From contig OY282360.1 in the NCBI GenBank assembly GCA_958295675.1, positions 530,026 to 594,025 on the forward strand: 64,000 nucleotides of DNA, written 5' to 3'. The notes under the pieces were generated by a model. That model searched no databases. It was not told the origin of the DNA and saw nothing but the letters and a program-made list of their open reading frames with translations. A program made the position numbers and the translations under genes. This document shows, piece by piece, positions 3,766 to 63,049 of the stretch. Position 1 is the stretch's first letter. The number at the start of each line of letters is the position of its first letter. This DNA comes from Minisyncoccota bacterium. Lineage in GTDB: Bacteria > Patescibacteriota > Minisyncoccia > Phycocordibacterales > JABAAK01.

Positions 3766-5919
3766 ATGCAGAACCTCGTTATCGTTGAGTCACCGACTAA
3801 AGTAAAAACAATAGAAAAATATCTCGGTAAAGAATATAAAGTGGTCGCTTCAGTCGGACATATACGGGATTTGCCGAAAAGCGAAAAAGATGCGGTTGAT
3901 ATTGACCGCGGATTCACGCCGAAATATGTGACCAATACGGAAAAAAAGAAAGTGGTACAGGATATCAAAAAAAAGGCGAGAAGCGCGGACCGCGTCATAC
4001 TCGCGACTGATCCGGACCGTGAAGGCGAAGCGATTGCATGGCACATACAACAGGCCGTTGATCTTGAAAACCCGGATAGGGTTGTATTCAATGAAATAAC
4101 CGAAGAAGCGGTTCGTGAAGCGCTGAAACATCCGAGAAAAATAGATCAATCACTCAGAAAATCACAGGAAGCGCGACGAGTGCTGGACCGGTTATTCGGC
4201 TACACGCTCAGCAAACTCATCTGGACCAAGGTGCGGTACGGACTCTCCGCGGGACGCGTGCAATCCCCGGCTCTGCGCATACTCATGGAACGGGAACGGG
4301 AGATACGAAAGTTCAAACCGGAAACCTATTGGGAAATACGCGGAACATTTAAGCGGGAAGACGGAAAAGAATACATAGCGGAATGTGAAAAGACATTTGA
4401 CAAAAAAGAAGAGGTTTCTGATATTGTACATCAGGCAAAAAAGAAGAAGTGGAAAGTTAATGATATACAGGAACGGATGCAGAAACGAAATCCGCGCGCG
4501 CCGTTCATCACCTCAACACTGCAGCAGGCGGCAAACAGCGCGTTCGGGTGGTCACCGTCATACACAATGCGAACAGCGCAGCGGCTCTATGAAGCGGGAC
4601 ATATCACCTATATGCGCACCGACTCAACAAACCTATCCGCACACGCCCATGCAATGCTGAAAAAGCACATCACGGAAGAATACAATGCGAATGAATACCG
4701 CAGAACGGATTACAAGACAAAAAGCAAATCGGCACAGGAAGCGCACGAAGCAATTCGTCCCGCATCAATCAGCGGCATACACCGCGGAAAAACAAAACAG
4801 GAAAGCGCGCTCTACACCCTGATACATCAGCGAACGGTCGCGAGTCAAATGAACCCCGCGGAACTGGTACGCACTGTGGTATCTTTTACAGCGGACGGCA
4901 TGCCGCTTTTTCTCATTCGCGGTGTCGTCATCGTGAAAGAAGGGTGGTTCATGGCGGATCCGAACGCGCGCGGTGAAGAAATAACGCTTCCGACATTCAA
5001 CAAAGATGAGAATATGATATGCACTGATATGCAGTCAGCGGAAAAACAGACCGCTCCGCCGTCACGCTACTCAGAAGCCGGATTGGTTAAGGAACTTGAA
5101 GCGCGAGGCATCGGCAGACCATCCACCTATGCTCCGACTATCCAGACACTTGTGGAGAGAAAGTATGTTGAAAAAGAGAACCGATCACTCAAACCGACAA
5201 CACTCGGCGATGTTGTCAGCTCATTCATAGAAAAAAACTTTGAAAACTATATCAGCGATTCCTTCACGGCAAATATGGAACAGAATCTTGATGAAATAGC
5301 GAACGGAAAAAAGGAATACGAGGAAACACTTTCATTATTCTACCGTCCGTTCAGAGAAAGTGTGGAATCAAAACAGGATGTTCCCAAACTGACTTCACTC
5401 GGTGCCGCACCGAAAGAATACCTCTGTCCTGTCTGTGACGGCACTATGGAATACAAACTGTCAAAAACAGGCACTTTCATGAGTTGCAAAAAGTATCCCG
5501 AGTGTCTCGGGGCGCGCACGGATGAAGGAGAAGAAATACAGCCGCCGAAACCGATCGGCAAACCATGCCCGAAATGCGGTGAATCGCTGGTGAAACGAAC
5601 CGGTAGATTCGGTGAATTCATCAGTTGTGAAACATACCCGAAATGCAAGTATGTTGAAGAAGACCCCGAAGAAAAAGCAAGAAAAGATACCGGTGTGCTG
5701 TGTACAATCTGCAAAAAAGGAACCATAATTGAACGACAGGGTAAGTTCGGTCCTTTCTTCGGTTGCTCAGAATACCCGAAATGCAAGAACACAATGCGCG
5801 CGCGACCGACGGGAGAAAAATGTCCAGAATGCGGCGCACTGATGATGGAAGGCACAAAGACCATACCAAATCGCTGCTCTGTAAAGACATGTCCGATGCA
5901 TAACCCGCACAAGGCATAA
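3766..5919 (+). CDS. topA: DNA topoisomerase I
   Basis: TOPRIM N-terminus (MQNLVIVESPTKVKTIEKYLG, DPDREGEAIAWH) and active-site-region motif (TYMRTDS). Four C-terminal Cys4 zinc ribbons (CPVCDG..CKKYPEC etc). Confidence 0.9.
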   Translation: MQNLVIVESPTKVKTIEKYLGKEYKVVASVGHIRDLPKSEKDAVDIDRGFTPKYVTNTEKKKVVQDIKKKARSADRVILATDPDREGEAIAWHIQQAVDLENPDRVVFNEITEEAVREALKHPRKIDQSLRKSQEARRVLDRLFGYTLSKLIWTKVRYGLSAGRVQSPALRILMEREREIRKFKPETYWEIRGTFKREDGKEYIAECEKTFDKKEEVSDIVHQAKKKKWKVNDIQERMQKRNPRAPFITSTLQQAANSAFGWSPSYTMRTAQRLYEAGHITYMRTDSTNLSAHAHAMLKKHITEEYNANEYRRTDYKTKSKSAQEAHEAIRPASISGIHRGKTKQESALYTLIHQRTVASQMNPAELVRTVVSFTADGMPLFLIRGVVIVKEGWFMADPNARGEEITLPTFNKDENMICTDMQSAEKQTAPPSRYSEAGLVKELEARGIGRPSTYAPTIQTLVERKYVEKENRSLKPTTLGDVVSSFIEKNFENYISDSFTANMEQNLDEIANGKKEYEETLSLFYRPFRESVESKQDVPKLTSLGAAPKEYLCPVCDGTMEYKLSKTGTFMSCKKYPECLGARTDEGEEIQPPKPIGKPCPKCGESLVKRTGRFGEFISCETYPKCKYVEEDPEEKARKDTGVLCTICKKGTIIERQGKFGPFFGCSEYPKCKNTMRARPTGEKCPECGALMMEGTKTIPNRCSVKTCPMHNPHKA

Positions 5920-6001
5920 TCATAAAAAATTCTGCCGATGTCCGAAGACAATCAGCAGAATATGGATCGGAACAACGCAATCAATCGTGAGCATGAAGAC
6001 A

Positions 6002-6559
6002 TCAAAGACCGAGCACTAATTTTTGCAAATCAGCGCGGGTTACTTTAACATCCTTATCACCTCTCCACAACGCGGTACACGCTCCGGAAAGAAACGATTC
6101 TGACGATTCCGTCTTTAAGCCATCGACACATTGCTCACGGGAAACAGTTGTGCCGTCACTCAGTTTGATTTTTGCGTCGGCATAATGCACCAACACATCA
6201 GCAAGTCGTCTGTTGTACTCACACCAAATGGGTACATCGTACCTGTATTCCCCTGTTTCCTCATCAAGCATGGGAAAAAGGTAATCCCTGTAGTCAATAC
6301 CTGCATCACGAATTCTGATGCAAATACTGACATCCTGTTCGGGTGAAGAAGGTGCGGGAGAACCTTCATGGCGCGGCAAAGCAGCGGCTTTTGGCTCTTT
6401 CTTTTCCGAATCTGATTGATTGAAAAAGGCAAAACCCTGAGACCGAACTCCGGAAAGTGTACCACTCTCCGCGGCAACGGCACAAACACACGACACCTGC
6501 ACACCGGCACAAACAAAAAAACCGGCAAGCACTTTTTTTAAACCACCTTTCACCATCAC
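6002..6559 (-). CDS. secreted protein, member 1 of a WCxYN/ACTALW C-terminal-domain family
   Basis: N-terminal signal peptide. The C-terminal ~90 aa (IWCEYNRRLA...DGTTVSREQC...ACTALWRGD...LQKLV) are shared with the next two genes. Confidence 0.55.
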   Translation of the reverse strand: MMVKGGLKKVLAGFFVCAGVQVSCVCAVAAESGTLSGVRSQGFAFFNQSDSEKKEPKAAALPRHEGSPAPSSPEQDVSICIRIRDAGIDYRDYLFPMLDEETGEYRYDVPIWCEYNRRLADVLVHYADAKIKLSDGTTVSREQCVDGLKTESSESFLSGACTALWRGDKDVKVTRADLQKLVLGL

Positions 6560-6708
6560 ACAACCTCCTTCAGTGAGCAGGACGAAAGAACACTCTATTT
6601 ATATTTTATCACAACAAGAAGAGTATATATAAAAAAGTAACACCGATGTGAATAAAAAGTAACCGCGACAATATACATGTTTTCACATGACATTGTCGCG
6701 GTAAAATG

Positions 6709-8301
6709 CTACCTCACTCCGGGAACGAGCATACTAAGATCTCGCACCCGAATTGTGGCCATCTCTTGATCACCTTTCCATAGCGCAGTACACGCCCTAG
6801 AAAGATCAGAAGGACCGTCATGTGCCGCAAGATTCCTGATACATTCATCTTGCGATACAGACGTGCCGTCATCAAGAGAAATTTCCTCAAATGAAGAAGG
6901 ACCGGATTCAGCGAGTTTCAGCGCAAGTCGAGCATTGTATCGGCACCAGATAACAGGCTGGTATCTCCAGCTCCGTGTTCTGGTGTTGAATACTCTCTCA
7001 CGCAGATACGCCCTGTGGTTCAGGGTACGCAACTTCTCACACGCGTTCCTCGAGTTTTGATCATCAGAATGCTGAGCAAGGTTTTCCGCCGGAACCACTT
7101 GATCCGATTCACCCTCTTCAACAGGATCCTCAATCACCTCGGGTCCATCGGCTTCAGCATCATCTTCAAAGAACGGGAAGTCGTCAACCAAAACCGGTTT
7201 CGGTGTTTCGTCAACAAAAGTCACCTCCACACGAATTGGTTTGTGATGTTCCGGAAGAACATCAAGATCGGTGCTCGCAGCGTCCTCAGCAGAACCATCA
7301 AATCCGGGGAGATGAAGAACCGGATCTTCAACGACCACTTCTCCGGAGAGATTCGGCTCTTCAACAACAACCGCTTCTCCGGAGAGATTCGGCTCTTCAA
7401 CAACAACCGCTTCTCCGGAGAGATTTGGCTCTGCAACAACAACCGCTTCTCCGGTGAGATGAGGAGTCAGATCTTCAACAACCACTTCCAGCACTCTCAC
7501 TCTGTCGCCATCAGCAGTTTCAACCTCAAACTCTCTCAAAGGAAGACCACTTTCTGCAGGAGTCGAGGGGGTGAGAATTTTCCCGGCGCCAGCAGCTTTC
7601 TCCTCAATCTCTTTCAGAGAAACACCGAATCCTCCTTCTGCTTCCTCAACTACTGCACCTAGTTGCGCAGGATCCGGAGAGTCGTCGCTTACTCCTTCCG
7701 ATCCCTCAATTTCTGTACGTGGTGGCACAGAAGTCAAGGTCTCATCAGTCGCTGTTGCCCCCTCATCCGTTTCGCTTGATAGCGCAGGAGCCGGAGAGTC
7801 GTCGCTTACTCCTTCCGATTCCTCAATTTCCGTACTTGGTTGCACAGAAGTCAAGGTCTCGTCAGTCGCTATTGCCTCCTCAAACATCTCGCTTGGTAGC
7901 GTGGTTTCCGGAAACAGAACAGCGGGATCTTCCCCAGCTACTGCATCTGGTTGCGTAACAACCAGAGAGTCGTCAGATGCTTCCACTTCCTCAACTTCCG
8001 CGCTTGGTTGCACAGGAGCCGGAGTGTCGTCAGATGCTTCCACTTCCTCAACTTCCGCGCTTGGTTGCACAGGAGCCGGAGTCTCGTCAGTCGCTGTTGC
8101 CTCCTCATCCATTTCGCTTGATAGCGCAGGAGCCGGAGAGTTGTCAAATTGAGTTTCAGTCCTTCCTTCAAAGGAAAACAGAAACCGAGTCGTTTGCTCC
8201 ACAAACACCTCGAACGGTATATCGCCGTATTTGTGCTCAAATACGGCACCTCCACCGAACAGGGTCAATGCAGAAACCACACACAAAAAACCTTTGAACA
8301 T
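6709..8301 (-). CDS. secreted acidic repeat protein, member 2 of the same C-terminal-domain family
   Basis: Signal peptide. Long D/E/S/T/P/A low-complexity body built from DNA tandem repeats. C-terminus VIWCRYNARLA...DGTSVSQDEC...ACTALWKGD...LSMLV. Confidence 0.6.
   Translation of the reverse strand: MFKGFLCVVSALTLFGGGAVFEHKYGDIPFEVFVEQTTRFLFSFEGRTETQFDNSPAPALSSEMDEEATATDETPAPVQPSAEVEEVEASDDTPAPVQPSAEVEEVEASDDSLVVTQPDAVAGEDPAVLFPETTLPSEMFEEAIATDETLTSVQPSTEIEESEGVSDDSPAPALSSETDEGATATDETLTSVPPRTEIEGSEGVSDDSPDPAQLGAVVEEAEGGFGVSLKEIEEKAAGAGKILTPSTPAESGLPLREFEVETADGDRVRVLEVVVEDLTPHLTGEAVVVAEPNLSGEAVVVEEPNLSGEAVVVEEPNLSGEVVVEDPVLHLPGFDGSAEDAASTDLDVLPEHHKPIRVEVTFVDETPKPVLVDDFPFFEDDAEADGPEVIEDPVEEGESDQVVPAENLAQHSDDQNSRNACEKLRTLNHRAYLRERVFNTRTRSWRYQPVIWCRYNARLALKLAESGPSSFEEISLDDGTSVSQDECIRNLAAHDGPSDLSRACTALWKGDQEMATIRVRDLSMLVPGVR
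7339..7460. repeat. intragenic 36-bp tandem repeat (about 3.3 copies)
   Basis: Unit ttctccggagagattcggctcttcaacaacaaccgc reiterated head-to-tail. Further ~60-100 bp near-perfect reiterations lie at 7660-8130. Confidence 0.8.
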
Positions 8302-8493
8302 GGTCTTTTCCTTCAGTTGTTGATGGTAGACAGCACAAAGACTGCCACTCTAGTTTCTATTATATAAAATATAAACATATTGTCAACTTTTATAGAATAA
8401 GGTTCAAAAAAAATACAACTAAATAACCCCTTCCCTATATAAAAAGAAAAAGACCACAACAACAAGATAAACTGTCGTTGTGGCCTTTGAAAA

Positions 8494-9126
8494 TCACCGC
8501 CGATCAAAAACGAGACGGTACAAGTCAGATGACATCACGGTGGGCTTTCCACCACGAAGCAACACTGAGCAAGCGCGGGAATAAAGGTTCTTCCCGTCCG
8601 TCTGCATCGGCAGATGGGCGACACAGTCCTCAACCGTGACTGGCTCGCCGTCAACATCAATGCTGTCCGCGGCAATGTCTGCGTTTCCAAGTTCAGCAGC
8701 CAATGTGCGGTTGTACGCACACCATGTTGCTGCCGAGTAAACACGAAACCCGCCATCCCCGAGGTTAGTGTCATAGCGGGTACTCGGTTGTTGATCTGCA
8801 TACTGATCGCATGGATTTTCATCCACTTCGGAATCATCAGATGCGGACTGATCAGCAACCATCTCAGGCATGGGGGGCATGGCTACAGGATGAGGCACAA
8901 CATACGGACCCGAACGCGACACTATTGCCCCATTTCGTTCCCGGTACTGCTCACCAAAGAGCGATGAGACGCTTCTGTCACCATAGTGATGCATGAAAAA
9001 TGCACCGAGAACCGGCAACGAAAGCATGAACAACGCCAAAACGACACCGCGCAATACACCGCCACTCCGTTTTGCATCACCACCAGTTTTTGCCCCGTCT
9101 TCGGGAGCAGTATCCTGTGTGTCCAT
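8494..9126 (-). CDS. membrane-anchored/secreted protein, member 3 of the same C-terminal-domain family
   Basis: N-terminal TM anchor. C-terminus TWCAYNRTLA...DGEPVTVEDC...ACSVLLRGG...LYRLV. Confidence 0.55.
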   Translation of the reverse strand: MDTQDTAPEDGAKTGGDAKRSGGVLRGVVLALFMLSLPVLGAFFMHHYGDRSVSSLFGEQYRERNGAIVSRSGPYVVPHPVAMPPMPEMVADQSASDDSEVDENPCDQYADQQPSTRYDTNLGDGGFRVYSAATWCAYNRTLAAELGNADIAADSIDVDGEPVTVEDCVAHLPMQTDGKNLYSRACSVLLRGGKPTVMSSDLYRLVFDRR

Positions 9127-9352
9127 TTTTCCTCCTTACTGGAAGTTGAAAAGAAATATAAAGAGACCCGTATAAATGGTCCCTAGTCCTGAATATATAA
9201 TAGTATGAAAACAATATATTGTCAATATCCCCTTATATAATACTCATATACCGCGATTATCACATAGATAACCACATAGCAGCAAAACCGGGGGATATAC
9301 ACATTCTCTTTCCATACAAAATCGGAAAATACCTTCTATTTTATTACAAAAA

Positions 9353-10903
9353 ATGGATATAAGATTTGTGTTGTATAGTACCAATATGAAAGCAGCAACA
9401 GAACAAGTAATAACATCACAGGACTATATCACAGCACAGGATATTATTGATTCAATACCGTACCAAATACCCATCAATGACAGACAAACGATAGAAAAAG
9501 CATGCGCATTTGTAAAAAAAAAGCATGAAAGACAGAAACGATATTCCGGTCTTCCCTATTACACACACGCCTTTGAAGTCGGAAAACTCATTGCGGAAGC
9601 AAATATGCCCATTAATATCATCATCGCCGGAATCCTCCACGACACGATAGAGGATACTGATACGACCGCTGCAGATATAGAAAAAGAATTTAACAAAGAA
9701 ACAGCATTCCTCGTGGAGAGCGTGAGTCATCTCGGTGAAGTACGCTATCAAGGATTGGATATACGGGTCAAATCACTCCAAAAACTATTTGTGGCAACAT
9801 CAAAAGATTTACGCGTCATCATCATAAAACTGATGGATCGGCTGCACAACATGCGAACACTTGATGCCGTTCCGGCAGAAAAACAAAAACGCATTGCCAA
9901 AGAAACACAATTGGTATATGTACCGCTTGCCGCTCGCCTTGGCATGGGTACTTTAAAAACAGAATTGGAAGAACTGGCATTCAGGCATATTGATCGAAAA
10001 ACATACAACATGCTGAAAGAAAAAATTAACACGGTAATCGGGTCAATATCAATGAAAGATATGGAAAGAAAAATGAGTGATGTTCTTTTGTCCGAAGGAG
10101 TTACTAATGTCAGCATAACATCAAGGATAAAAAACGCATACAGCACATACATGAAAATGAAGTATAAAAAATGCTCTTTTGAACAAATCCAGGATATCAT
10201 CGCGCTCCGCGTCATCGTTGATGACATACCGACCGCATACCATGTGTTAGGCATCATTCACGCGCATTGGCGCCCGATACCGGGAACATTCAAGGATTAT
10301 ATATCTCTGCCGAAACCGAACGGTTATCGCACGCTTCACACCAGAATACTCATTGACCAACACATTCTTGAAATACACATCCTGACTTACAGTATGTATC
10401 AGCACGCCCAATTCGGCATCGCCGCGCATTTTCATTATAAGGAAAAAAGAATAGGAATCGCCGGTATTGAACTGCAATGGTTTGACAAATTACTTGCTCA
10501 CAAAAAAACAGAACCGACAAAAAAACAACTCCCATGGCTGGAGCGAACTGCCGAACTTCACCAAAAAGAGAACGATAATGAGTCATCATTTGTTGAAAAT
10601 ATGCAGGTGGATTTCCTGCAGGAACGCATGTTTATATTCACACCAAAAGGTGAAACGGTTGACTTACCGCGAAAGGCGACTGCTCTTGATTTCGCGTTTG
10701 CTATTCACAGCGACATAGGAACACATGCGGAAGGTGCCTTTATCAACGGCAAATACACCTCACTAAGGCAGGAATTAAAAAACGGTGATATTGTCAGGAT
10801 AAAAGCAGCAAAAATACCGAAGGCGACAAAAAAATGGCTGGAATGGGTAAAAACAGCGGAAGCGCGTTCAGAAATCCGCCAGTTTATAAAGAAAAATTCT
10901 TAA
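9353..10903 (+). CDS. rel: bifunctional (p)ppGpp synthetase/hydrolase, short RelA/SpoT homologue (HD + synthetase + TGS, no ACT)
   Basis: HD-domain motifs (HDTIEDT, DRLHNMRTL), synthetase motifs (ALRVIV, GYRTLHTRI, EIHILT...AAHFHYKE) and a TGS domain (IFTPKGETVDLPRKATALDFAFAIHSDIG). The true start may be M at 9386. Confidence 0.8.
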   Translation: MDIRFVLYSTNMKAATEQVITSQDYITAQDIIDSIPYQIPINDRQTIEKACAFVKKKHERQKRYSGLPYYTHAFEVGKLIAEANMPINIIIAGILHDTIEDTDTTAADIEKEFNKETAFLVESVSHLGEVRYQGLDIRVKSLQKLFVATSKDLRVIIIKLMDRLHNMRTLDAVPAEKQKRIAKETQLVYVPLAARLGMGTLKTELEELAFRHIDRKTYNMLKEKINTVIGSISMKDMERKMSDVLLSEGVTNVSITSRIKNAYSTYMKMKYKKCSFEQIQDIIALRVIVDDIPTAYHVLGIIHAHWRPIPGTFKDYISLPKPNGYRTLHTRILIDQHILEIHILTYSMYQHAQFGIAAHFHYKEKRIGIAGIELQWFDKLLAHKKTEPTKKQLPWLERTAELHQKENDNESSFVENMQVDFLQERMFIFTPKGETVDLPRKATALDFAFAIHSDIGTHAEGAFINGKYTSLRQELKNGDIVRIKAAKIPKATKKWLEWVKTAEARSEIRQFIKKNS

Positions 10904-12959: not shown

Positions 12960-13047
12960 ATATACCATAAGTATAATACATATATTTCTAACACTCATGC
13001 TACCAACAATTGATGCTGATAAAATTTTTACTTTTCTCTTTAATAAG

Positions 13048-13075
13048 TTGACAAAATATAGTTTTTATCTATAAT
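13048..13075 (+). promoter_or_regulatory. consensus sigma70 promoter (TTGACA-16-TATAAT) for secreted-protein gene 1
   Basis: TTGACA at 13048-13053 and TATAAT at 13070-13075. The identical block recurs at 13964-13991. Confidence 0.6.
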
Positions 13076-13138
13076 ATATACTAGGAGTGGAGGAGTATAA
13101 CAACTCTTTCATTGTTACACTTAAAGGAGCAACACACA

Positions 13139-13830
13139 TGGGTCGTAAGACACCTTTCATCATCGTTGCGCTTGTCATGGCAATGAGCGGTTGGACCGCT
13201 CTCGCTGAGGACAAGGGTACCGATACCGATGCCAGCACCGCAGAAGTTGAAAGCGGACATACCGCTGTGGACAACGGTACCGACGCCAGAGGCGACTTCG
13301 TTCAGCATCGGGTAGACCAGGTTTCCAGTTTCGCCGAAGCATTGGCGAACATGTATCCGGACAATCGGGTAGACCAGGTTTCCAGTTTCGCCGAAGCATT
13401 GGCGAACATGTATCCGGACAATCGGGTAGACGCGGTTTCCAGTTTCGCTGAAGTATTGGCGAACATGAATCTGGATCTGGAGAAGTCCTGTTTGTCCAGT
13501 ACCTCTCTTTCTCCGCCTGCCGCACAGAAGCACGCGGAGAATTGGCAGAAGTTGGTTGATTCGGGTGCCGACATCGATGTGTCGGACATAACGTTTCAAG
13601 TGTTTCTTGCCACCATGGACAGCAGCACGCGCGATGTTCAGTGTTTCCCAAGAAATTGTCCATGGTCACATGAGGAAATTGATTGGGATGACGGCGACGA
13701 CAGACTCGCCTATGTCCGGTGGATGGCAAATGCCAGTACCGAGGATTTGAAGGCCTGTCTCAGCGGCACGGAGATTACTCCGCTTGCGGCGCAAACGCAC
13801 GCAGAGAACTGGTTGGTGGCGGCAGAGTAA
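13139..13830 (+). CDS. small secreted repeat protein (paralogue 1)
   Basis: AAAGGAG Shine-Dalgarno precedes the ATG at 13139. Signal peptide MGRKTPFIIVALVMAMSGWTALA. Three 20-aa tandem repeats (RVDQVSSFAEALANMYPDN). Conserved C-terminus shared with 14055..14621. Confidence 0.65.
13302..13470. repeat. 60-bp tandem repeat x3 inside the secreted-protein gene
   Basis: catcgggtagaccaggtttccagtttcgccgaagcattggcgaacatgtatccggacaat repeated with 1-2 substitutions. Confidence 0.8.
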
Positions 13831-13844
13831 TCATCCCCCCATTA

Positions 13845-13884
13845 AACCCAATAGGAGTCCGCTCCTGTTGGGTTTATTTTTTTT
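13845..13884 (+). terminator. rho-independent terminator
   Basis: AAACCCAATAGGAG-tccgc-CTCCTGTTGGGTTT followed by a T9 run. Confidence 0.8.
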
Positions 13885-13963
13885 AATATTAGTCGTGCGC
13901 GTCTGCCCGTGCCGTCAATCTCTGATTGACGCTGACAGAGTTTTTTACTTTTCTCTTTAATAA

Positions 13964-13991
13964 GTTGACAAAATATAGTTTTTATCTATAA
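13964..13991 (+). promoter_or_regulatory. consensus sigma70 promoter, second copy
   Basis: TTGACA 13964-13969, 16-nt spacer, TATAAT 13986-13991. Confidence 0.6.
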
Positions 13992-14054
13992 TATATATTA
14001 GGAGTGGAGGAGTATAACAACTCCTTCATTGTTACACTTAAAGGAGCAACACAC

Positions 14055-14621
14055 ATGGGTCGTAAGACACCTTTCATCATCGTTGCGCTTGTCATGGCAA
14101 TGAGCGGTTGGACCGCTTTCGCCGAGGACAAGAGTACCGATACCGATGCCAGCACCGCAGAAGTTGAAAGCGGACACACCACGGACAATGTGGAAAAGGA
14201 GACCAACAAAGTCCAGGACGACTCGGACGAGATCATTTTCGCTGAAGTATTGGCGAACATGAATCTGGATCTGGAGAAGTCCAAGGCATGCCTCTCCAGC
14301 ACCACTTTTTCTGGTGAATACAAGGAGTACCCTTCTGAGGACTTTGTGAAGTTGATAGAGGGTGCTGTTGATTTGGACACATCGTTTCAAGTGTTTCTTG
14401 CCATCATGGAAAGCAGCACGCGCGATGTTCAGTGTTTCCCAAGAAATTGTCCATGGTCACATGAGGAAATTGATTGGGATGACGACGACGACAGACTCGC
14501 CTATGCCCGGTGGATGGCAAATGCCAGTGCCGAGGATGTGAAAGCGTGCCTCAGCTCTACCGTTATTACTCCGCTTGCGACGCAAACGCACGCAGAGAAC
14601 TGGTTGGCGGCGGCAGAGTAA
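14055..14621 (+). CDS. small secreted protein (paralogue 2)
   Basis: Same Shine-Dalgarno, signal peptide and C-terminal ~70 aa (DVQCFPRNCPWSHEEIDWDDDDDRLAYARWMANASAEDVKACLSSTVITPLATQTHAENWLAAAE) as paralogue 1. Confidence 0.65.
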   Translation: MGRKTPFIIVALVMAMSGWTAFAEDKSTDTDASTAEVESGHTTDNVEKETNKVQDDSDEIIFAEVLANMNLDLEKSKACLSSTTFSGEYKEYPSEDFVKLIEGAVDLDTSFQVFLAIMESSTRDVQCFPRNCPWSHEEIDWDDDDDRLAYARWMANASAEDVKACLSSTVITPLATQTHAENWLAAAE

Positions 14622-14634
14622 TCATCCCCCCATT

Positions 14635-14674
14635 AAACCCAATAGGAGTCCGCTCCTGTTGGGTTTATTTTTTT
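14635..14674 (+). terminator. rho-independent terminator (copy of 13845..13884)
   Basis: Identical hairpin plus T-run. Confidence 0.8.
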
Positions 14675-14759
14675 AATATTAGTCATGCGCGTCTGCCCGT
14701 GCCGTCAATCTCTGATTGACGCTGACGGATAGTCGCCACGGAGTGGCGGAATGATGGGG

Positions 14760-14826
14760 TGCCGGAGGCGGGAGTTGAACCCGCACACCCGAAGGTACAC
14801 GATTTTGAGTCGTGCGCGTCTGCCCG
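14760..14826 (-). pseudogene. partial tRNA-Leu(CAA) copy (3' two-thirds, from D-loop to discriminator)
   Basis: Identical to the 14887..14954 part of the intact gene. The 5' acceptor/D-stem is replaced by the 29-nt element cgtgccgtcaatctctgattgacgctgac. Confidence 0.7.
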
Positions 14827-14886
14827 TGCCGTCAATCTCTGATTGACGCTGACGGATAGTCGCCACGGAGTGGCGGAATGATGGGG

Positions 14887-14968
14887 TGCCGGAGGCGGGA
14901 GTTGAACCCGCACACCCGAAGGTACACGATTTTGAGTCGTGCGCGTCTGCCAATTCCGCCACTCCGGC
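14887..14968 (-). tRNA. tRNA-Leu (anticodon CAA)
   Basis: Reverse complement folds as GCCGGAG acceptor with anticodon stem CACGA/TCGTG and loop CTCAAAA. Long variable arm. T-arm GCGGG-TTCAACT-CCCGC. Discriminator A. Confidence 0.8.
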
Positions 14969-15006
14969 ATATAAAACAGTATAACAAACAGATATAGCAC
15001 TTCCTT

Positions 15007-17304
15007 CTACCGTACTTCAAACCCGTTTTTTTGCAGCACAGCATTCAATGCTTCCATACATACATTCACTGTGGAATCATCAAGAGTTCTGTCATCCGAT
15101 TGGAACACAAGACGAAACGCATACGATACTTTTCCGTCTTTTTCAAAGGTATCAAACATATTCACACGGCGCAGGTATTCACCGCCGTGTTCCCGGAGCA
15201 GATGTTCTGTCTGTTCTACCGTCGTGCCGTCCGGAACAAATACAGCAATATCCCGCAACACAAACGGAAACGGAGAAAACGGCGTATAGCGCACACGACC
15301 GATAACCGGAGGAAAATCATACGCATCCGGTTCAAGCGGCACTTCATCAAGCGGCACTTCCCAAACACCACCATCAAAACCGCCGGGAATAGGAAGTGCC
15401 TTCTTTATACTCTTTTCTATCTCCTTGATATCAGGCCCCGATCTGCCGAGTGTCGCGGTAATGCCGAGTGCAAGATGTATACTCTCACCACGCTCTGTAA
15501 ATACAGAACCAATCTCCATAATACGAATATCAGACACCCCGAGTAATTCTCCGACATAGGCATTTCTTTCAAGGGCTTCCTCAATCCCTTTTCTCAGGTC
15601 AGTACGCAGACACCCTTTATCCGCAGCGACAGGATGCGAAACACATACATCACCTTTCTCAAAGAATGAATGGGTAATCACTTCAGAAAAACCAAAAACA
15701 CGCAACGACTTCACAAGGGCAAGATGCTTCGCGAATATCGGCTCAACAGATTGCTCGCTTTGTGATGGTATAGCGGTCGGAGCGGCGCTCGGCACTGTGT
15801 CATAACCGAGTATTCTGCCGACTTCTTCAGTTAAATCAAACGCATTCCGTATATCAGGTCGTTCAACCGGCACAGTCACAACAAAACGCCTTTCATTATC
15901 CCAAATACTCGCCGCATATAGCATGCGTTTCCGGTCAAATTTCTTTGTCACCACGGCATTCGCACCGCTGCTTCCTTCCGCTTCAACAATGGTATCAGCA
16001 TCCAAAAGAACAGCGACATGATTAAATCCTGTCTTGACCGATCCGGGAGAGACAGGGTACCCCGATTCATACACCGATTCCGTGTGCAACGGAAGATTCC
16101 TGTCATCCGACTCCATGAAAATAAGATCGCCCGGACGGGGGTCAGTAACCTCAGCAGCGGAAAGAAATTGATTAACGGATATGCGCGGAATAGATTTTCC
16201 CGCACGCGACGCGCACCAGCAAACGAGCGATGAGCAATCAAAAGCATCGGGGGCATCTTTAGTAACAGACGCTCCCCACTTATACGGCTTGCCTGTCTGC
16301 GCTTTCACTGTTTCAATGAACAATGCGCGCGGGTCTTCATATGTGTGCGGCAATTGCAGTCGCTCAAGCGCGGCGCGCACATCCTCTTCAGTATGCGATG
16401 ATCCGAGTATAGCATTCACTTCGGCGACCGAGATGCCGGTCATCCGGCGGTGTCCGATCGGCACCCGCTTGCTGTCAAAAGAATCAACGATAGTACCGTG
16501 TTCACCGAAAACTTCTGCCGCACGATGAGCACTGTAACCGACAAGTTCCGGGGGAATATTCTGCGAAAATCGCAAGGAAGCATCCGAAACAAGATTGAGT
16601 CGTCGCATCGTGCGGCGGATAGTCGCGCCACGAAAGGTTGCTGATTCAATATAAATACTCTTCGTGTCCGGACTGACTCCGGTATCTTCCCCGCCCTTCA
16701 CACCGGCAAGCGCAACAACTCGGTCGGCATCAGTGATAACTATATCATCAGAAGAAAGCGTAACAGTGTCCCCGCCAAGCAGCGTGAGTGTTTCACCGTC
16801 ACGCGCTTGCCGCACACCGAACTCACCGGATACCTTTTCCGCGTCAAATGCGTGTATTGGCTGACCGATATCAAAAAGCACATAATTAGAGAGATCAACA
16901 ATCGGATTAATGCTCCGCTGCCCTATCGCCTCAAGCCGCAACCGTATCTCTTCGGGTGTTTCCTGCAATGACACATCATCAACTTTCATAATGGTATACC
17001 GATCACAGTACTCTGTCTGTATACACGCCGCCTCCCGCGCAAACTGAAACGGTTCCGTAAAATAGTGACGACGCATAGTCAGCGAAAAAACAGCAGCGAT
17101 TTCCTTCGCGACACCGTAATGTGCAAGACAATCAACCGACCGATTCGGCAGGATATCCAGTTCATACACGGTATCATCGCCGTTCCGCACTACATCCTCA
17201 ACCTCAAACGCATGCCGCATCAGACCGTCCGAAACTATATCCGGTGACGGCAACGGTTCGTTAAAAAATGATTGTAACCATGCGTGACTGTATATTCCCT
17301 TCAT
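15007..17304 (-). CDS. pheT: phenylalanine--tRNA ligase beta subunit with an inserted NlpC/P60 peptidase-like domain
   Basis: B3/B4, B5 and C-terminal FDX-ACB-like regions are recognisable. The start overlaps the pheS stop (ATGA). Residues ~352-503 of the ORF-track protein (nt ~15885-16338) carry PYKWGASVTKDAPDAFDCSSLV ... GDLIFMESDD ... FNHVAVLLDADTIVEAEGS. Confidence 0.8.
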   Translation of the reverse strand: MKGIYSHAWLQSFFNEPLPSPDIVSDGLMRHAFEVEDVVRNGDDTVYELDILPNRSVDCLAHYGVAKEIAAVFSLTMRRHYFTEPFQFAREAACIQTEYCDRYTIMKVDDVSLQETPEEIRLRLEAIGQRSINPIVDLSNYVLFDIGQPIHAFDAEKVSGEFGVRQARDGETLTLLGGDTVTLSSDDIVITDADRVVALAGVKGGEDTGVSPDTKSIYIESATFRGATIRRTMRRLNLVSDASLRFSQNIPPELVGYSAHRAAEVFGEHGTIVDSFDSKRVPIGHRRMTGISVAEVNAILGSSHTEEDVRAALERLQLPHTYEDPRALFIETVKAQTGKPYKWGASVTKDAPDAFDCSSLVCWCASRAGKSIPRISVNQFLSAAEVTDPRPGDLIFMESDDRNLPLHTESVYESGYPVSPGSVKTGFNHVAVLLDADTIVEAEGSSGANAVVTKKFDRKRMLYAASIWDNERRFVVTVPVERPDIRNAFDLTEEVGRILGYDTVPSAAPTAIPSQSEQSVEPIFAKHLALVKSLRVFGFSEVITHSFFEKGDVCVSHPVAADKGCLRTDLRKGIEEALERNAYVGELLGVSDIRIMEIGSVFTERGESIHLALGITATLGRSGPDIKEIEKSIKKALPIPGGFDGGVWEVPLDEVPLEPDAYDFPPVIGRVRYTPFSPFPFVLRDIAVFVPDGTTVEQTEHLLREHGGEYLRRVNMFDTFEKDGKVSYAFRLVFQSDDRTLDDSTVNVCMEALNAVLQKNGFEVR

Positions 17305-27388: not shown

Positions 27389-28543
27389 TTAGTATCTTCT
27401 AAAGAGGAAAACGATAATACTTCGCGTGAGGACGCCGATGAAAAAGAGGGTGGAAACAACCGTGATAACGAGCAACAACGGCGTGAAAAGGGACGCAAGC
27501 AGCAGCAGACCGACACCGAGAGCGGTTGATTTCGCGGTAACATGAATATCTTTTTTCCTGAACAATAACCATACAACAGCACCGACAAGGACCGGAGTAA
27601 CAATAATTCCGAGAAAAATCACAAGTAAAAGAGATAAAAGAAGCGCCATTGCAATACCAAAAAATCCGGGAATAAACAAAAGCACCAATGAAAACAGCGC
27701 GGCGAGTATCACAAAGGCAAGACCGATTAAAACAGCAAGAAGAGCATGCGTAACCGACATCCGCAGAAAAGTATTCCAGCGGCTTCTGAGAGCACCGTAT
27801 GCCAAAAACCCGCCAACTGCAAGAGAAATGAGAGTGGTGATAAATACAAAAAGTGCCTTCTTCCCCTCCTCTTTAACCGGCATTGTATCCCCGCCGACAA
27901 TCGCACCAGGATGCAAAGTGAGTGTTTCTGTTTTATCCTGATCTGTGTACACAATATCTCCCGTCACATTCGCTCCTTCGTGTAGAGTTATTTGCTTCGT
28001 ATCTTCAGCATACACAGTACCGTCAACGGTACCGTGAATAACAAGATTAAGACCGCTCACACGCATGTCGCCATGAACAGTGCCATGAACAGTGGCGGCA
28101 TCAGCATACAGCGCAATGTCAGATCCAACAATACCGTCCTGTTCTAAAACAAAAGAAGTGCCGACAAATAAAACTTCTCCTGTAATCTCATCACGCACAA
28201 CACCACTGTCAGCGATGATGCGCGCATCGCCATGCACACGCTCATCAAGAATAATATCTTCACCTATAAATCCGATATCACCGATTAAATGTTCTGCGAT
28301 ACGCAACGATTTTGCGAGAGCATAAATATCGCCGGACATCGGTGAATCAACGGAAATGATATTACCGATGAGATATACATTTTCGTCTTTCTCACCCAAA
28401 GAAACAATATGCTCATCTGTGATTGAGATAAGCGGACTATGTTTGTCATAATCGGAGGTCTCCGCAAAAACAGGCACGCTGAACAGGAAACAGATAACAA
28501 ACAAAATGCTCGCGGCAACTGATTGTCGGCTGCTGGATAGCAT
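27389..28543 (-). CDS. signal-peptide beta-helix (bactofilin/DUF4097-like) protein with polytopic C-terminal membrane domain
   Basis: Signal peptide. ~200 aa of short GD/VxG-rich beta-helix-like repeats (VHGDxRVSGLNLVIHGTVDGTVYAEDT...). Then ~5 TM helices. Confidence 0.5.
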   Translation of the reverse strand: MLSSSRQSVAASILFVICFLFSVPVFAETSDYDKHSPLISITDEHIVSLGEKDENVYLIGNIISVDSPMSGDIYALAKSLRIAEHLIGDIGFIGEDIILDERVHGDARIIADSGVVRDEITGEVLFVGTSFVLEQDGIVGSDIALYADAATVHGTVHGDMRVSGLNLVIHGTVDGTVYAEDTKQITLHEGANVTGDIVYTDQDKTETLTLHPGAIVGGDTMPVKEEGKKALFVFITTLISLAVGGFLAYGALRSRWNTFLRMSVTHALLAVLIGLAFVILAALFSLVLLFIPGFFGIAMALLLSLLLVIFLGIIVTPVLVGAVVWLLFRKKDIHVTAKSTALGVGLLLLASLFTPLLLVITVVSTLFFIGVLTRSIIVFLFRRY

Positions 28544-28603: not shown

Positions 28604-30619
28604 CTACACGGTATCTTCCCGCGTATTGCCGTCATTACCAGCTCTCTGCAAATCATTGAGATTAATCCAGTCGTCATCATAGTGTATTGGCGGTTTCTTT
28701 TTCTCCTGTGGCTTCGGTGGAACTGTCAAATCTTTCTTCAAACCGCTTTGCTGCGTAGATTTAATAAGACCGCCTAATGAACCGGTTGTTGTTTTCTGAT
28801 GTGCGGATACCTCTGTATCACTGTCTCTGTTTTTCTTTTGCGCAACATCTTTCTGTTTCTTTAATCTGTCTTTTTTGTCATCCTTGCGATCTTTCTCCGG
28901 AGCAGGATTCAGCCGCTCTTCAGATTGATCTTTGTGTACATTACTATCCGAGCGTTCTCTCTGTTCCGATCGAATATCTTTTTTTTCTTTATTATTCCTT
29001 TCAATGACATCAGAAGCTGGCATTGTCACGGATGTAGAAGAAACAGAATCATTCTTTTTCTGCGCGGTATCAGTCCTCATCCGCGCCTGCGCGCCTTTCT
29101 GAGACCGATCCTTCTTATCAAATCCTTTTTCTTTTGCACCTCCACCCGTCAATTTCTGAATGAGACCTTTTGCGACCTTTTGAAACGGTTTTTGTGTTTC
29201 CTGTTGTGCGGATGCCGATTTGCCGTCTTTCCTTCCTTTCTGATCAGCATACTTTCTCTTATTTTTTTCATCAGGTTTCCGCTGACCGGAAGACGGAACA
29301 ACCGTGCCTTCCAGGCGTTCCCGTATCTGTTCTTCCAGCGCAACCTGATCAACACCGTATCGTTCTCCTGATTTTTTTATAACCAGTTCCGCAAGCGATA
29401 TCGGCGGTGGATCCGGCATCTGAAATGTTCTCGCTGAAAACGGCGTTGATCCCGCGCCGTCAATATTAAGTGTCAGAAACATATGCCGTCTCGGCAGCGC
29501 GACCAAATCCTCTTCGGTGATAACCGGCGCGAATTGTTTCGCGATAATCTCAGCATCAACCGGTCCGACACGAAACGAGACAAAAGTGCCGACATTGCCG
29601 AATACGGCATCCCGAATCATGTTCCCTTCTGCGGCATCATCACTATAAAGCTGTCCGATATACTGGTGCGCCAGCACAAGGTTCAGTTTGTACTTCCGCG
29701 CCTCGGAAAGAATACCGGCAAATGAGGAATTCGCGAACGATTGGAACTCATCAACATAAAAGTTACAGGGTGCGGCATCAGTGAGTTCCTGATGTGTCAT
29801 ATCTCCGCGGGAAAGCGCGGCAAGGTATATTTTGGTGGTGAACAGCACACCAAGCATTTTCGCGTTATTCTCACCAATCTGCCCTTTTGAAAGATTCACC
29901 AGCAGCACCTTCTTGTTGTCCATGATCTCGCGAAAATTAAAAGACGATTTCGGCTGTGCGATGATATTCCTGATAAGCGGATTCGCAGTGAACTGTCCGA
30001 GTTTATTCTGAATTGCCGGAGTCGCATCCTGCACATACCGCTCGTTATAGTTCGCGTAATCCTCAATCCAATATTTCCTTACCTGCGGATCTTTGATATT
30101 TTCTATCACATGATTACGGAACTCCTTGTTCGAATACATCCGACCGATATCTAAAAGTGTGGTATTCGGATATTCAATGAGAGCGAGCAGGGTGTTTACA
30201 AGAATGTATTCCATACGATCCGACCAGCTTGTCTCACCCCATATCTTGTGAAACGACGCTATCAAACTGCTGACAACAAGATGTCGCTTGTCATATCCGA
30301 TATCCTCCATAATATTCAGACCAATGGGACGATTCTGCAGGTGCGGAGCAAAATAAATGGTGTCATCAACCCGATTTTCAGGCACAAAATTCAGCAGGTT
30401 ATCCACTGACTGACCGTGCGGATCCATGAAGATGAGACCTTCGCCGTTCATAACATCCTGAGTCGCCATAATTTCAAGCAATGTGGATTTTCCGGTACCT
30501 GTCTGCCCTATCACATAAATATGTCGGGACCGGTCTTCCTCCTTGATGCCGAACCGAATGGTCTCGCCACGTCTGTCAAGTTCACCGACATATACTTTTC
30601 TTTCTGGATCATACGCCAT
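28604..30619 (-). CDS. TraD/VirD4/TrwB-like (AAA_10, FtsK-HerA superfamily) P-loop ATPase with ~250-aa Lys/Glu-rich disordered tail
   Basis: Walker A VIGQTGTGKST. Walker B NFYVDEFQ. Downstream LVLAHQYIGQL motif typical of type IV coupling-protein-like ATPases. Confidence 0.55.
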   Translation of the reverse strand: MAYDPERKVYVGELDRRGETIRFGIKEEDRSRHIYVIGQTGTGKSTLLEIMATQDVMNGEGLIFMDPHGQSVDNLLNFVPENRVDDTIYFAPHLQNRPIGLNIMEDIGYDKRHLVVSSLIASFHKIWGETSWSDRMEYILVNTLLALIEYPNTTLLDIGRMYSNKEFRNHVIENIKDPQVRKYWIEDYANYNERYVQDATPAIQNKLGQFTANPLIRNIIAQPKSSFNFREIMDNKKVLLVNLSKGQIGENNAKMLGVLFTTKIYLAALSRGDMTHQELTDAAPCNFYVDEFQSFANSSFAGILSEARKYKLNLVLAHQYIGQLYSDDAAEGNMIRDAVFGNVGTFVSFRVGPVDAEIIAKQFAPVITEEDLVALPRRHMFLTLNIDGAGSTPFSARTFQMPDPPPISLAELVIKKSGERYGVDQVALEEQIRERLEGTVVPSSGQRKPDEKNKRKYADQKGRKDGKSASAQQETQKPFQKVAKGLIQKLTGGGAKEKGFDKKDRSQKGAQARMRTDTAQKKNDSVSSTSVTMPASDVIERNNKEKKDIRSEQRERSDSNVHKDQSEERLNPAPEKDRKDDKKDRLKKQKDVAQKKNRDSDTEVSAHQKTTTGSLGGLIKSTQQSGLKKDLTVPPKPQEKKKPPIHYDDDWINLNDLQRAGNDGNTREDTV

Positions 30620-62512: not shown

Positions 62513-62707
62513 CAAAATAGTGGTGTGATTATATTTTTACTATTGCAATACGCATGGGCAATCCGCTACAGAAACGATTATTACATTTCTCACGAAAAGA
62601 ATCGACTAATTAGTACTCCTCTGCTAAACGCATCTCTGCGCGTACACATAGAGCCTATCAACCTGATCATCTCTCAGGGGTCTCAAATGATACCTAATCT
62701 CAAGGTG

Positions 62708-62740
<33 letters not shown>

Positions 62741-62799
62741 CTGCCCAACATAGCTACCCAGCTGTGCCGCTGGCGCGACAACTGGTACACCAGAGGTTA

Positions 62800-62831
<32 letters not shown>

Positions 62832-62870
62832 TCCTTTCAAGTATCAACGACTGCGGAAGATAGAGAACCA

Positions 62871-62914
<44 letters not shown>

Positions 62915-62928
62915 TTGGAGAACAGCCA

Positions 62929-62982
<54 letters not shown>

Positions 62983-63017
62983 GAACTCCGTCGTCGATAT
63001 GAACTCTTAGACGGAAC

Positions 63018-63049
<32 letters not shown>

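Follow-up and report, generated by a model that had tools for sequence, protein, structure and literature searches.

A tandem array of 5′-truncated tRNA-Leu(CAA) copies that holds two secreted-protein cassettes in a tiny-genome, Kaiserbacteria-like bacterium

Known systems and the tRNA-Leu(CAA) locus

The tRNA gene fragments examined in PMC9897764 were ascribed to two processes, the integration of mobile elements and CRISPR spacers. A full tRNA gene with a direct repeat of the 3′ part of the tRNA is the classical footprint of integration (PMC9897764). Such attL/attR footprints and the tandem accretion of islands at tRNA genes have been described (Reiter 1989; Williams 2002; Islander; reviewed in PMC9897764), and the anticodon loop is the classical crossover position for tRNA-targeting tyrosine integrases (Williams 2002, as cited in PMC9897764). 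Here we describe a tandem repeat beside a tRNA-Leu gene of a Kaiserbacteria-like bacterium with a tiny, episymbiont-type genome of 724.5 kb, of which a 64-kb stretch, referred to as the window, was analysed. The repeat units are 5′-truncated copies of tRNA-Leu(CAA) together with its trailer. The locus appears to be a further source of partial tRNA genes, namely a live array of tandem units that started within a tRNA gene.

The locus resembles bacterial minisatellite (VNTR) arrays in its constant-period head-to-tail units, in a copy number that differs between strains (2.1 versus 4.0), in its homogeneity within a strain and in the in-register duplication of a larger variant, the cassette-bearing unit. 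It differs from them in that the unit combines two-thirds of a functional tRNA gene with its trailer, that this unit design recurs at two or three tRNA-Leu genes, and that a unit can hold a complete expression module of 0.75–0.87 kb. With attL/attR islands it shares an intact tRNA gene whose 3′ part is directly repeated, a breakpoint in the anticodon loop, and intervening DNA that varies from strain to strain. Unlike in those islands, no integrase was found, the DNA between the repeats is a 60-nt native trailer or one small gene, and each cassette lies between a 17-nt D-loop/anticodon-stem piece and a trailer hairpin, with no core common to its junctions.

Integron cassette arrays are similar in that small single-gene cassettes stand in series, each followed by a conserved palindrome-containing element, and in that their content varies between strains. 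However, no attI was found here and no intI in the scanned window ORFs, and the cassettes have their own promoters and terminators. The recurring element is derived from tRNA and trailer and lacks the GTTRRRY core and the attC architecture, the 46-nt junction having no GTT on either strand. Two other classes were rejected. For an IS200/IS605-type element or REP/RAYT, no Pfam match to an HUH (Y1) enzyme was obtained in the scanned ORFs, and the hairpin is not dispersed within the 64 kb. For a diversity-generating retroelement, no reverse transcriptase was found in the scanned ORFs and no template repeat in the window, and, as read from their alignment, the paralogues also differ at positions other than adenines.

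Structure of the array in the window and in relatives

The tRNA-Leu(CAA) gene was divided into a (the 5′ 17 nt), R (D-loop to anticodon loop, tRNA positions 18–34) and b (the 3′ 50 nt). The 60-nt trailer S was divided into S1, with an inverted copy of a, and S2, with a GTCAAT-N5-ATTGAC hairpin. Read along the minus strand, the sense of the tRNA, the array has the order a[R b S1 S2][R b S1 S2][R′ cassette2 S2][R cassette1 S2-degenerate] and is followed by miaA. The features, in window coordinates, are as follows.

14887–14968, minus strand: intact tRNA-Leu(CAA) (Rfam tRNA, 58.4 bits; ARAGORN, 14884–14969)
14952–14968, 14935–14951 and 14885–14934 (CC included), minus strand: segments a, R and b of the intact tRNA, assigned from the sequence
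14825–14951, minus strand: array unit 1, 127 bp, with R and b of the real tRNA, S1 (14854–14884) and S2 (14825–14853)
14698–14824, minus strand: array unit 2, 127 bp, a 5′-truncated pseudo-tRNA with R (14808–14824), b (14758–14807), S1 (14727–14757) and S2 (14698–14726)
14866–14879 and, a second time, 14739–14752, minus strand: inverted copy of tRNA positions 3–16 inside S1, 14/14 complementary to 14953–14966
14681–14697, minus strand: R′, 17 nt of tRNA from the D-loop to the anticodon loop with 1 mismatch, which opens unit 3 and abuts the cassette 2 terminator
13937–14680, plus strand: cassette 2, with −35 (13965–13970), −10 (13987–13992), CDS (14055–14621; 188 aa, signal peptide; P0002) and terminator (14634–14667) plus T run
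13891–13936, minus strand: 46-nt junction separating the cassettes, S2 (13908–13936) plus R (13891–13907), exact matches, nhmmer 51.6 bits
13021–13890, plus strand: cassette 1, with −35 (13048–13053), −10 (13070–13075), CDS (13138–13830; 230 aa, signal peptide; P0001) and terminator (13843–13876) plus T run
13307–13477, plus strand: three in-frame repeats of 57 bp within the CDS of cassette 1
13000–13020, minus strand: degenerate terminal S2 copy ATCAGCATCAATTGTTGGTAG with its palindrome destroyed, identified from alignments, left of cassette 1 at the array boundary beside the miaA upstream region

Tandem Repeats Finder reported a repeat at 14681–14951 with a period of 127, 2.1 copies and 99% matches, and units 1 and 2 are identical over 127 nt. 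A preliminary description of this DNA had placed an intact tRNA-Leu(CAA) on the minus strand at 14887–14968, which Rfam and ARAGORN both recovered, and beside it a tandem duplicate of the tRNA 3′ two-thirds; the duplicate is there, at a period of 127 bp instead of the ~126 bp given. This second tRNA copy (14758–14824) is 100% identical to tRNA positions 18–84. It was called by ARAGORN (14758–14843) and was rejected as a functional tRNA gene, scoring 24.4 bits against the Rfam gathering score of 29, with the D-arm missing and 2 mismatches in the acceptor stem. ARAGORN takes array units for additional tRNA-Leu genes, and genomes of this kind can therefore be credited with too many tRNAs.

The window contains four copies of the 17-nt R piece (13891, 14681, 14808 and 14935) and three of the 29-nt S2 piece (13908, 14698 and 14825), counts that were reached in 0 of 100 dinucleotide-preserving shuffles of the window. 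This agrees with the earlier claim that a 46-nt junction element recurs after both secreted-protein genes. The GTCAAT...ATTGAC hairpin is confined to this locus within the 64 kb, and in relatives it was found only downstream of tRNA-Leu genes. An inverted copy of the tRNA 5′ end, also reported earlier in the spacer, matches at 14 of 14 nt and is present at two sites, where it forms the left arm of a predicted S1 hairpin, CGCCAC-TCC-GTGGCG. This 14-nt copy is unique among 110 tRNA-Leu(CAA) loci, the longest trailer match in 108 others being 8 nt. Minimum-free-energy folding predicts pairing between the tRNA 5′ end and S1 in both contexts (z-scores −5.0 and −3.5). An internal promoter in S was rejected, none being found by a promoter scan. 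In a metagenome scan with a 27-mer of the tRNA, all of the matching loci listed (at least 120) were single-copy, and none had homology to S or to the cassettes.

The collections searched held one close relative, a sister strain whose corresponding locus is referred to as L019. A PheT scan of GTDB genomes gave no close relative (best identity 31–41%), and exact-protein look-ups gave no record for the window's own proteins or for P0123. The flanks of L019 are 92–96% identical to the window, and homology stops exactly at 14681 and resumes at 12999. In place of the cassettes L019 has two further 127-bp units, and not a plain unoccupied site, and its array consists of four identical units (4.0 copies, 100%) with no cassettes. 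The units read ...ACTATCC in both window units versus ...ACTATTC in 4/4 L019 units, C versus T at a position of S1. Copy number is 2.1 in the window versus 4.0 in L019, and units are more alike within than between the genomes; the array is under concerted evolution. An assembly artefact was rejected, as the array is present in two independent assemblies with differing copy numbers.

A second locus in the same assembly as L019, L145, carries tRNA-Leu(TAG) with a 126-bp array; the head-to-tail period is constant at each locus, 127 in the window and in L019 and 126 in L145. The breakpoints at TAG are the same as at CAA, between AATT and GG in the D-loop and after ...GGCACG. S at TAG and S at CAA are about 83% identical overall and about 91% identical over the 3′ 45 nt, and the tRNA bodies are far more diverged. 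The inverted copy of the 5′ end co-varies with its own tRNA between CAA and TAG (TC to CT opposite GA to AG). The S2 hairpin is present at three tRNA-Leu genes, with conserved stems and different loops (CAGAG, CAAAG and TTGGGTG).

L145 also has an array-less tRNA-Leu(TAA), followed by a homologous trailer (nhmmer E 3.4e-6) and then by a decayed 5′-truncated copy. In the alignment of this trailer 32/47 positions are identical and 10 differ by transitions, and the local score is 22 versus a maximum of 17 in 500 shuffles. Because this array-less gene has a homologous trailer, S is a native tRNA-Leu trailer. That S is an inverted native trailer was rejected, since the TAA trailer aligns in direct orientation. 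The live arrays are 99–100% homogeneous and the TAA copy is decayed. Distant relatives retain the order pheS-pheT-tRNA-Leu-miaA, where tRNA-Leu is a single TAA gene or a full tandem TAA and CAA pair, which points to earlier duplication at this locus, and S is missing in relatives at 63% PheT identity. The preliminary description had proposed looking for cassette-number variation among strains and for the junction element elsewhere. Both cassettes are missing from the L019 locus, and the junction element is present at tRNA-Leu(TAG) in L145; the arrangement is therefore not an old, fixed duplication.

The cassettes and their protein family

Both cassettes contain a TTGACA-16-TATAAT promoter (12/12 matches), an AAAGGAG Shine-Dalgarno sequence, a common signal peptide and a terminator with a 15-bp stem and a T run, so that all the identical signals first described for them were found. 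The cassettes are bounded by R (tRNA positions 18–34) on one side and by S2 on the other. Each stands in place of 81 nt (b + S1) and is not a simple insertion; the cassette junctions share only ~2–3 nt, with no common core and none of 5 nt or more. The R-b repeats enclose only the cargo-free 60-nt spacer. No additional copy of the cassette sequence was found in the window, and derivation of the cassette from tRNA or S sequence was rejected, there being no similarity. The GC content of the cassettes (0.46–0.54 versus about 0.48 in the flanks) is not anomalous.

Cassettes 1 and 2 have common boundaries on both sides, with flanks identical at 108/110 and 59/60 positions and a diverged middle. It follows from these boundaries that one acquisition event suffices, with later duplication of the unit. 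Between the two cassettes dS is 0.11–0.125 at the ends and about 1.1 in the middle, and dN/dS is 0.28–0.51, indicating that the cassettes are real genes under purifying selection. Dating of the duplication from dS was set aside as unreliable, since intragenic repeats and conversion appear to have remodelled the middle.

P0001 and P0002 are members of a small family of secreted proteins that is confined to this lineage, and every member is equipped with a promoter and a terminator of its own. In a word-indexed search of 5.8 billion proteins the only matches were these two cassette proteins; a full HMMER search of 1.84 billion representatives alone added P0244, a homologue elsewhere in the same 724.5-kb genome, and P0243, a homologue in the sister assembly, which brings the family to 4 distinct proteins. 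No Pfam family was matched at the cut-off, no PHROG family was matched with an E value better than 0.017, and tblastn against phage and plasmid collections gave no matches. The AlphaFold2 model of the cassette protein was of no use (mean pLDDT 34). L145 contains tandem modules of the family with common promoters and terminators, and it also has a 1.8-kb duplication at 99.9%; its cassettes have no flanking S or R pieces. The family adjoins tRNA-Leu genes at both loci whose context was visible. As in contingency-type families of secreted or surface proteins, near-identical 5′ and 3′ blocks enclose a divergent, repeat-containing middle, and the paralogues form tandem mosaics both in the window and in L145. 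Unlike in those families, the proteins are lineage-restricted and one sub-array is embedded in a tRNA-derived repeat.

Origin of the array and of its cassettes

The locus looks more like recombination-driven repeat turnover than integrase-mediated delivery, the latter being less likely. Slightly better than an even case can be made that it is a tandem array under concerted evolution, composed of the tRNA-Leu(CAA) 3′ two-thirds and their own 60-nt trailer and changed by unequal crossing-over and template switching. Unequal crossing-over, gene conversion and replication template switching, acting between the repeated S2-R junctions and R-b segments, would add and remove units and keep them homogeneous, a turnover that would need no dedicated recombinase. 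The b + S1 (81 nt) of one unit would have been swapped for a full expression module, from a consensus promoter and Shine-Dalgarno sequence through a signal peptide and a variable coding region to the terminator. The putative source of the module is the lineage-restricted secreted-protein family that is also present elsewhere in the genome, and illegitimate recombination or microhomology-mediated templated insertion is the probable route of the swap. Unequal exchange between flanking S2 copies would then have duplicated the unit that carried the cassette, which would account for both paralogues and for the repeated occurrence of the 46-nt junction. Quasi-palindrome (template-switch) copying or correction would best explain why S1 contains the tRNA 5′ end in inverted form. 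The locus has in common with quasi-palindrome template-switch, MMBIR and FoSTeS-type events an exact inverted copy that tracks the changes of its partner and a replacement-type insertion with 0–3 nt of microhomology, and we infer such a mechanism here from sequence only. No donor copy or intermediate was seen, and the molecular mechanism proposed for unit turnover and cassette capture is likewise read from the DNA itself.

Two observations count against the array model. Breakpoints common to CAA and TAG are not predicted by random tandem duplication and need ectopic template switching or conversion, or a site-preferring mechanism. Selection for pairing, in place of mutational correction, could lie behind the co-variation of the inverted copy with its tRNA.

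The preliminary description had read the locus as site-specific recombination delivering a small cargo gene at a tRNA attachment site, perhaps in a cassette array serviced in trans. The S2-R junction with its palindrome would then be a recombination site, and an unlinked site-specific recombinase would insert, excise or shuffle cassettes at tRNA-Leu genes. Of that claim, the strain-level presence or absence of both cassettes held, as did the recurrence of junction and breakpoints at a different tRNA-Leu gene (TAG). The end of R in the anticodon loop, the position of the cassette family beside tRNA-Leu at both loci with visible context and the restriction of the perfect palindrome to sites downstream of tRNA-Leu genes point the same way. 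The delivery itself fared worse, and we regard it as unlikely. No Pfam match to a recombinase, transposase or reverse transcriptase was obtained in the 20 window ORFs scanned (all but one within 23–59 kb), and none of these enzymes appears in the gene tables of L145 and of L019, which is syntenic and stands in for window positions 2–22 kb. Over that range the earlier remark that no integrase lies nearby stands. No direct repeats of the tRNA 3′ end bound the cassettes, which replace 81 nt instead of being inserted and share no junction core of 5 nt or more. The cassettes of L145 have no flanking S or R pieces, the cargo-free units form a perfect 127-bp array in which S is the native trailer, a 31-mer of the junction had no match in IMG/VR viral contigs, and the documented independent insertion events number one.

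We give a similarly low probability to the reading that the unit of S and truncated tRNA is kept by selection, which fits either recombination mechanism. Its putative roles are control of pre-tRNA folding or processing by pairing of the trailer with the 5′ end, a processing or protein-binding site in the S2 hairpin, or action of the truncated copies as small RNAs or tRNA-like decoys. Between CAA and TAG, S (about 91% over 45 nt) has diverged less than the tRNA bodies, and the a:S1 pairing contains two compensatory changes between the loci; quasi-palindrome template switching, however, yields the same compensatory pattern without selection. The retention of hairpin stems with different loops at three tRNA-Leu genes and the 5′-end:S1 pairing predicted in both contexts (z-scores above) would also fit selection, although three sequence contexts make co-variation statistics impossible. 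So would the contrast between the homogeneous live arrays and the decayed TAA copy. The pseudo-copies fail the tRNA model, and the absence of S in relatives at 63% PheT identity means that any function would be very young.

Somewhat more doubtful still is the proposal that the unit of S and 5′-truncated tRNA-Leu is a self-propagating module that recognises the tRNA-Leu D-loop. Such a module would have moved between CAA and TAG with identical breakpoints, would have been amplified by an unlinked enzyme (a recombinase, HUH nuclease or reverse transcriptase), and would serve as a landing pad that captures and shuffles promoter-equipped secreted-protein genes. If true, CPR bacteria would have a cassette system of their own, anchored at tRNA genes. 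The recurrent breakpoints at two tRNA-Leu genes and the co-varying inverted copy are unusual and justify a search for a dedicated mechanism.

Least probable, and without positive support for the earlier suggestion of an integrative-element remnant, is a decayed prophage or island once integrated in tRNA-Leu, with R-b as an attR-type partial tRNA, S as element ends and the cassettes as surviving cargo: the full tRNA does have its 3′ 67 nt directly repeated behind it, and the cassettes, as ORFans, match no Pfam or PHROG family, but S and what lies beyond it share homology with the TAA trailer and are thus chromosomal, not element-derived, the array ends in S2 and native flank instead of a displaced tRNA 3′ end, the cassette GC is not anomalous, tblastn and PHROG searches showed no phage or plasmid similarity, and the cassette family is endogenous and multi-copy.

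Under the favoured reading of a tandem array, the locus is a place where a 0.72-Mb episymbiont-type genome gains, duplicates and loses strain-specific secreted-protein genes. The cassette genes are candidate host-interaction genes, and the locus could be used as a marker to tell strains apart. In line with such repeat turnover, other tandem repeats of this genome also differ between the two strains.

The tRNA-Leu(CAA) array and its units

The tRNA-Leu(CAA) gene, its three pieces (a, R and b) and the trailer S that follows it are listed below; tRNA sense is the minus strand of the window.

Pieces of the tRNA-Leu(CAA) gene and the first copy of its trailer
14887-14968, minus strand: tRNA-Leu(CAA), detected by Rfam (58.4 bits) and ARAGORN
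14952-14968, 17 nt: piece a, the tRNA 5′ end
14935-14951, 17 nt: piece R, GGCAGACGCGCACGACT, from the D-loop to the first two anticodon-loop bases
14885-14934, 50 nt: piece b, the remainder of the tRNA
14854-14884, 31 nt: S1, first copy, the opening part of the 60-nt trailer S
14825-14853, 29 nt: S2, first copy, GTCAGC-GTCAAT-CAGAG-ATTGAC-GGCACG

Read in tRNA sense, the locus runs a (R b S1 S2) (R b S1 S2) (R′ cassette 2 S2) (R cassette 1 degenerate S2) miaA, where R′ is a copy of R with one mismatch. In both cassette-bearing units the cassette replaced b + S1 (81 nt) of the array unit. The window holds four copies of R and three of S2, and neither count was matched in any shuffle of the window. 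S1 contains an inverted copy of tRNA positions 3-16 (14/14). The preliminary description of this locus was correct in all but the repeat period: the tandem duplicate is present, but Tandem Repeats Finder measured a period of 127 bp rather than ~126 bp (14681-14951, 2.1 copies, 99%).

The terminal degenerate copy of S2 (13000-13020) reads TCAGCATCAAT. It carries an A variant found in S2 of the tRNA-Leu(TAG) locus on L145 (GTCAGCATCAAT), unlike the window's own S2 (GTCAGCGTCAAT). This single base hints at a possible TAG-type array origin for the sequence flanking cassette 1 on the left.

A second 'tRNA-Leu' called by ARAGORN was rejected as a real tRNA; it is a pseudo-copy that lacks the D-arm and, at 24.4 bits, falls short of the gathering score (29). 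CAA array units were miscalled in this way in both the window and the sister strain, and three extra 'tRNA-Leu(TAG)' calls on a second contig of the sister assembly (L145, 8765-9216) are 5′-truncated array units. Automated annotation would thus inflate tRNA-Leu gene counts in these genomes.

Variation between strains and related loci

The one close relative compared was a sister strain (L019; ENA ERZ19488997, contig_8), the flanks of which are 92-96% identical to the window. Homology ends precisely at window positions 14681 and 12999. In its pheT-miaA gap L019 has no cassette; there, tRNA-Leu(CAA) leads into 4.0 mutually identical (100%) units of 127 bp. Cassette content and unit number thus vary at the strain level. 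S1 reads ACTATCC in both window units and ACTATTC in all four L019 units; units are uniform within a strain and different between strains, which is concerted evolution. In L019, miaA and parB are each broken into two overlapping ORFs (8009-9083 and 9288-10260), which may be long-read assembly indel errors rather than true pseudogenes.

L145 is contig_1 of the assembly that gave L019, and from this common origin and from sequence features we infer that the two belong to one genome. Five tandem secreted-protein modules (4216-8389) lie upstream of tRNA-Leu(TAA), which is followed by tRNA-Lys, tRNA-Leu(TAG) and a 126-bp array of 3.5 copies (100%). The design of the TAG array is that of the window array, with an identical D-loop breakpoint (AATT|GG) and an identical junction (...GGCACG|). 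TAG S and CAA S are ~83% identical overall and ~91% across the 3′ 45 nt, while the tRNA bodies are far more diverged. TAG S1 also contains an inverted copy of the 5′ end of its own tRNA, and the two tRNA 5′ differences (GA in CAA, AG in TAG) are mirrored in S1 as TC and CT, respectively.

The CAA gene has a close paralogue in the L145 tRNA-Leu(TAA). The trailer of this paralogue is homologous to S (nhmmer E 3.4e-6; 32/47 identical, 10 transitions) and decayed, with the hairpin stem unchanged, indicating that S is the native tRNA-Leu trailer of the lineage. Behind this trailer lies a decayed, 5′-truncated copy with a CAA anticodon. The arrangement of tRNA, S and truncated tRNA is thus older than the TAA/CAA split.

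In relatives at 63% PheT identity, synteny is kept and the pheT-miaA gap contains tRNA-Leu only. Two of these more distant loci (L143 and L144) have one tRNA-Leu(TAA) in the gap, while L141 has a full-length tandem pair (6335-6737; TAA, 236 nt, CAA), the two genes of which show only a few differences, pointing to a young duplication with an anticodon switch. The tRNA-Leu content of relatives thus indicates a history of tandem duplication at this locus. Neither S nor a cassette was found in L141, L143 or L144, indicating that S is young. At least 120 metagenomic loci with the same tRNA 27-mer showed no second copy, no S and no cassette homology, and in the trailers of the metagenomic tRNA-Leu(CAA) loci listed the inverted tRNA 5′ end never exceeded 8 nt.

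Cassette genes and their family

The two cassettes encode P0001 (230 aa) and P0002 (188 aa), which share 59% identity. Both cassettes have a 12/12 consensus promoter and a strong terminator, and they agree in Shine-Dalgarno sequence and signal peptide. Their ends are near-identical (upstream 108/110, downstream 59/60, dS 0.11-0.125) and their repeat-rich middles diverged (dS ~1.1). A dN/dS of 0.28-0.51, with every indel in frame, indicates that these ORFs are real genes under constraint. Neither protein had a match in Pfam, PHROG, phage or plasmid collections, and an AlphaFold2 model was uninformative. A full HMMER search with a P0001/P0002 profile found two remote homologues, P0243 on L145 and P0244 outside the window on the same 724.5-kb contig. 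Both are small, with a signal peptide and the motif ...ANM..D.LKACLS.T...PLAAQ.HAENW...GADLD...QCFP.

Promoters and terminators of the L145 modules are similar to their counterparts in the window cassettes. Within this group of modules, a two-gene stretch of 1.8 kb is duplicated at 99.9% identity, and the 5′ halves of the 181-aa and 245-aa genes are mosaic-shared (98.5% over 520 bp). No pieces of S or R lie between the L145 cassettes.

Formation of the array and its genomic setting

The simplest account, toward which we lean slightly, is a recombination-driven tandem array. Unequal crossing-over, conversion and template switching would add, remove and homogenise its units. In one of these, a family module would have been taken up in a replacement-type event with junction microhomology of at most 3 nt, and the cassette-bearing unit would next have been duplicated via the S2 copies on either side. 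This model explains why the 46-nt junction (S2 + R) recurs, why both cassettes have the same boundaries, why the paralogues are mosaic, why one strain has no cassette and the other two, and why no recombinase was found in the sequence examined.

Site-specific recombination at a tRNA attachment site delivering small cargo genes had been proposed for this locus. Cassette variation (none in L019) and the further junction copies on L145 agree with this proposal, yet the evidence does not favour delivery by an integrase. The 20 window ORFs scanned (19 of them within 23-59 kb) gave no Pfam hit to a recombinase, transposase or reverse transcriptase, and none of the three is listed for window 2-22 kb, as judged from the syntenic L019 gene table. 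The locus is similar to tRNA attachment footprints and to integron arrays, yet lacks defining features of both; it does qualify as a VNTR-type array subject to concerted evolution.

Chance alone does not explain why the TAG gene has the same breakpoints and a near-identical S, or why the inverted copy of the tRNA 5′ end co-varies. Without a dedicated enzyme, the former could arise by a two-step template switch on the conserved tRNA-Leu D-arm and CGGCACC 3′ end, and the latter by quasi-palindrome correction. Both observations are also compatible with a site-preferring enzyme, or with selection acting on RNA or DNA structure; in predicted folds the tRNA 5′ end pairs with S1 in both contexts. The tRNA gene fragments examined in PMC9897764 were ascribed to mobile-element integration and CRISPR spacers, and a live tandem array seeded in a tRNA gene, with expression cassettes, looks like a variant beyond the coverage of that paper.

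The window covers 64 kb of the 724.5-kb contig, and Candidatus Kaiserbacteria is among the named relatives of MiaA and PheT. Gene order is pheS-pheT-tRNA-Leu-(array)-miaA-(tRNA-Trp)-parB. An NlpC/P60 (C40 peptidase) domain is inserted into PheT (15010-17304, minus) around residues 317-462. PF00877 is present in almost all of at least 120 PheT homologues, including several Paceibacteria/Parcubacteria-group lineages; such an insert is usual in this group and unusual among bacteria generally.

A 530-aa ORF (6709-8301, minus) contains several in-frame tandem repeats at 7329-8138 with periods of 36, 117 and 57 bp. This region gave many overlapping, offset alignments with L019 (80-95% identity), where the counterpart has 510 aa and no Pfam family listed. 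The ORF looks like another repeat protein variable in copy number. The 16S gene (35627-37089) is unlinked from the 23S-5S pair, ~25 kb away, and the 23S gene (62589-64000) contains a group I intron (63571-63791, minus) scoring exactly the Rfam gathering score of 50 bits. A 671-aa protein (28607-30619, minus) with weak matches to TrwB/VirD4-type coupling proteins and HerA-type ATPases adjoins a bactofilin-domain protein (27392-28543).
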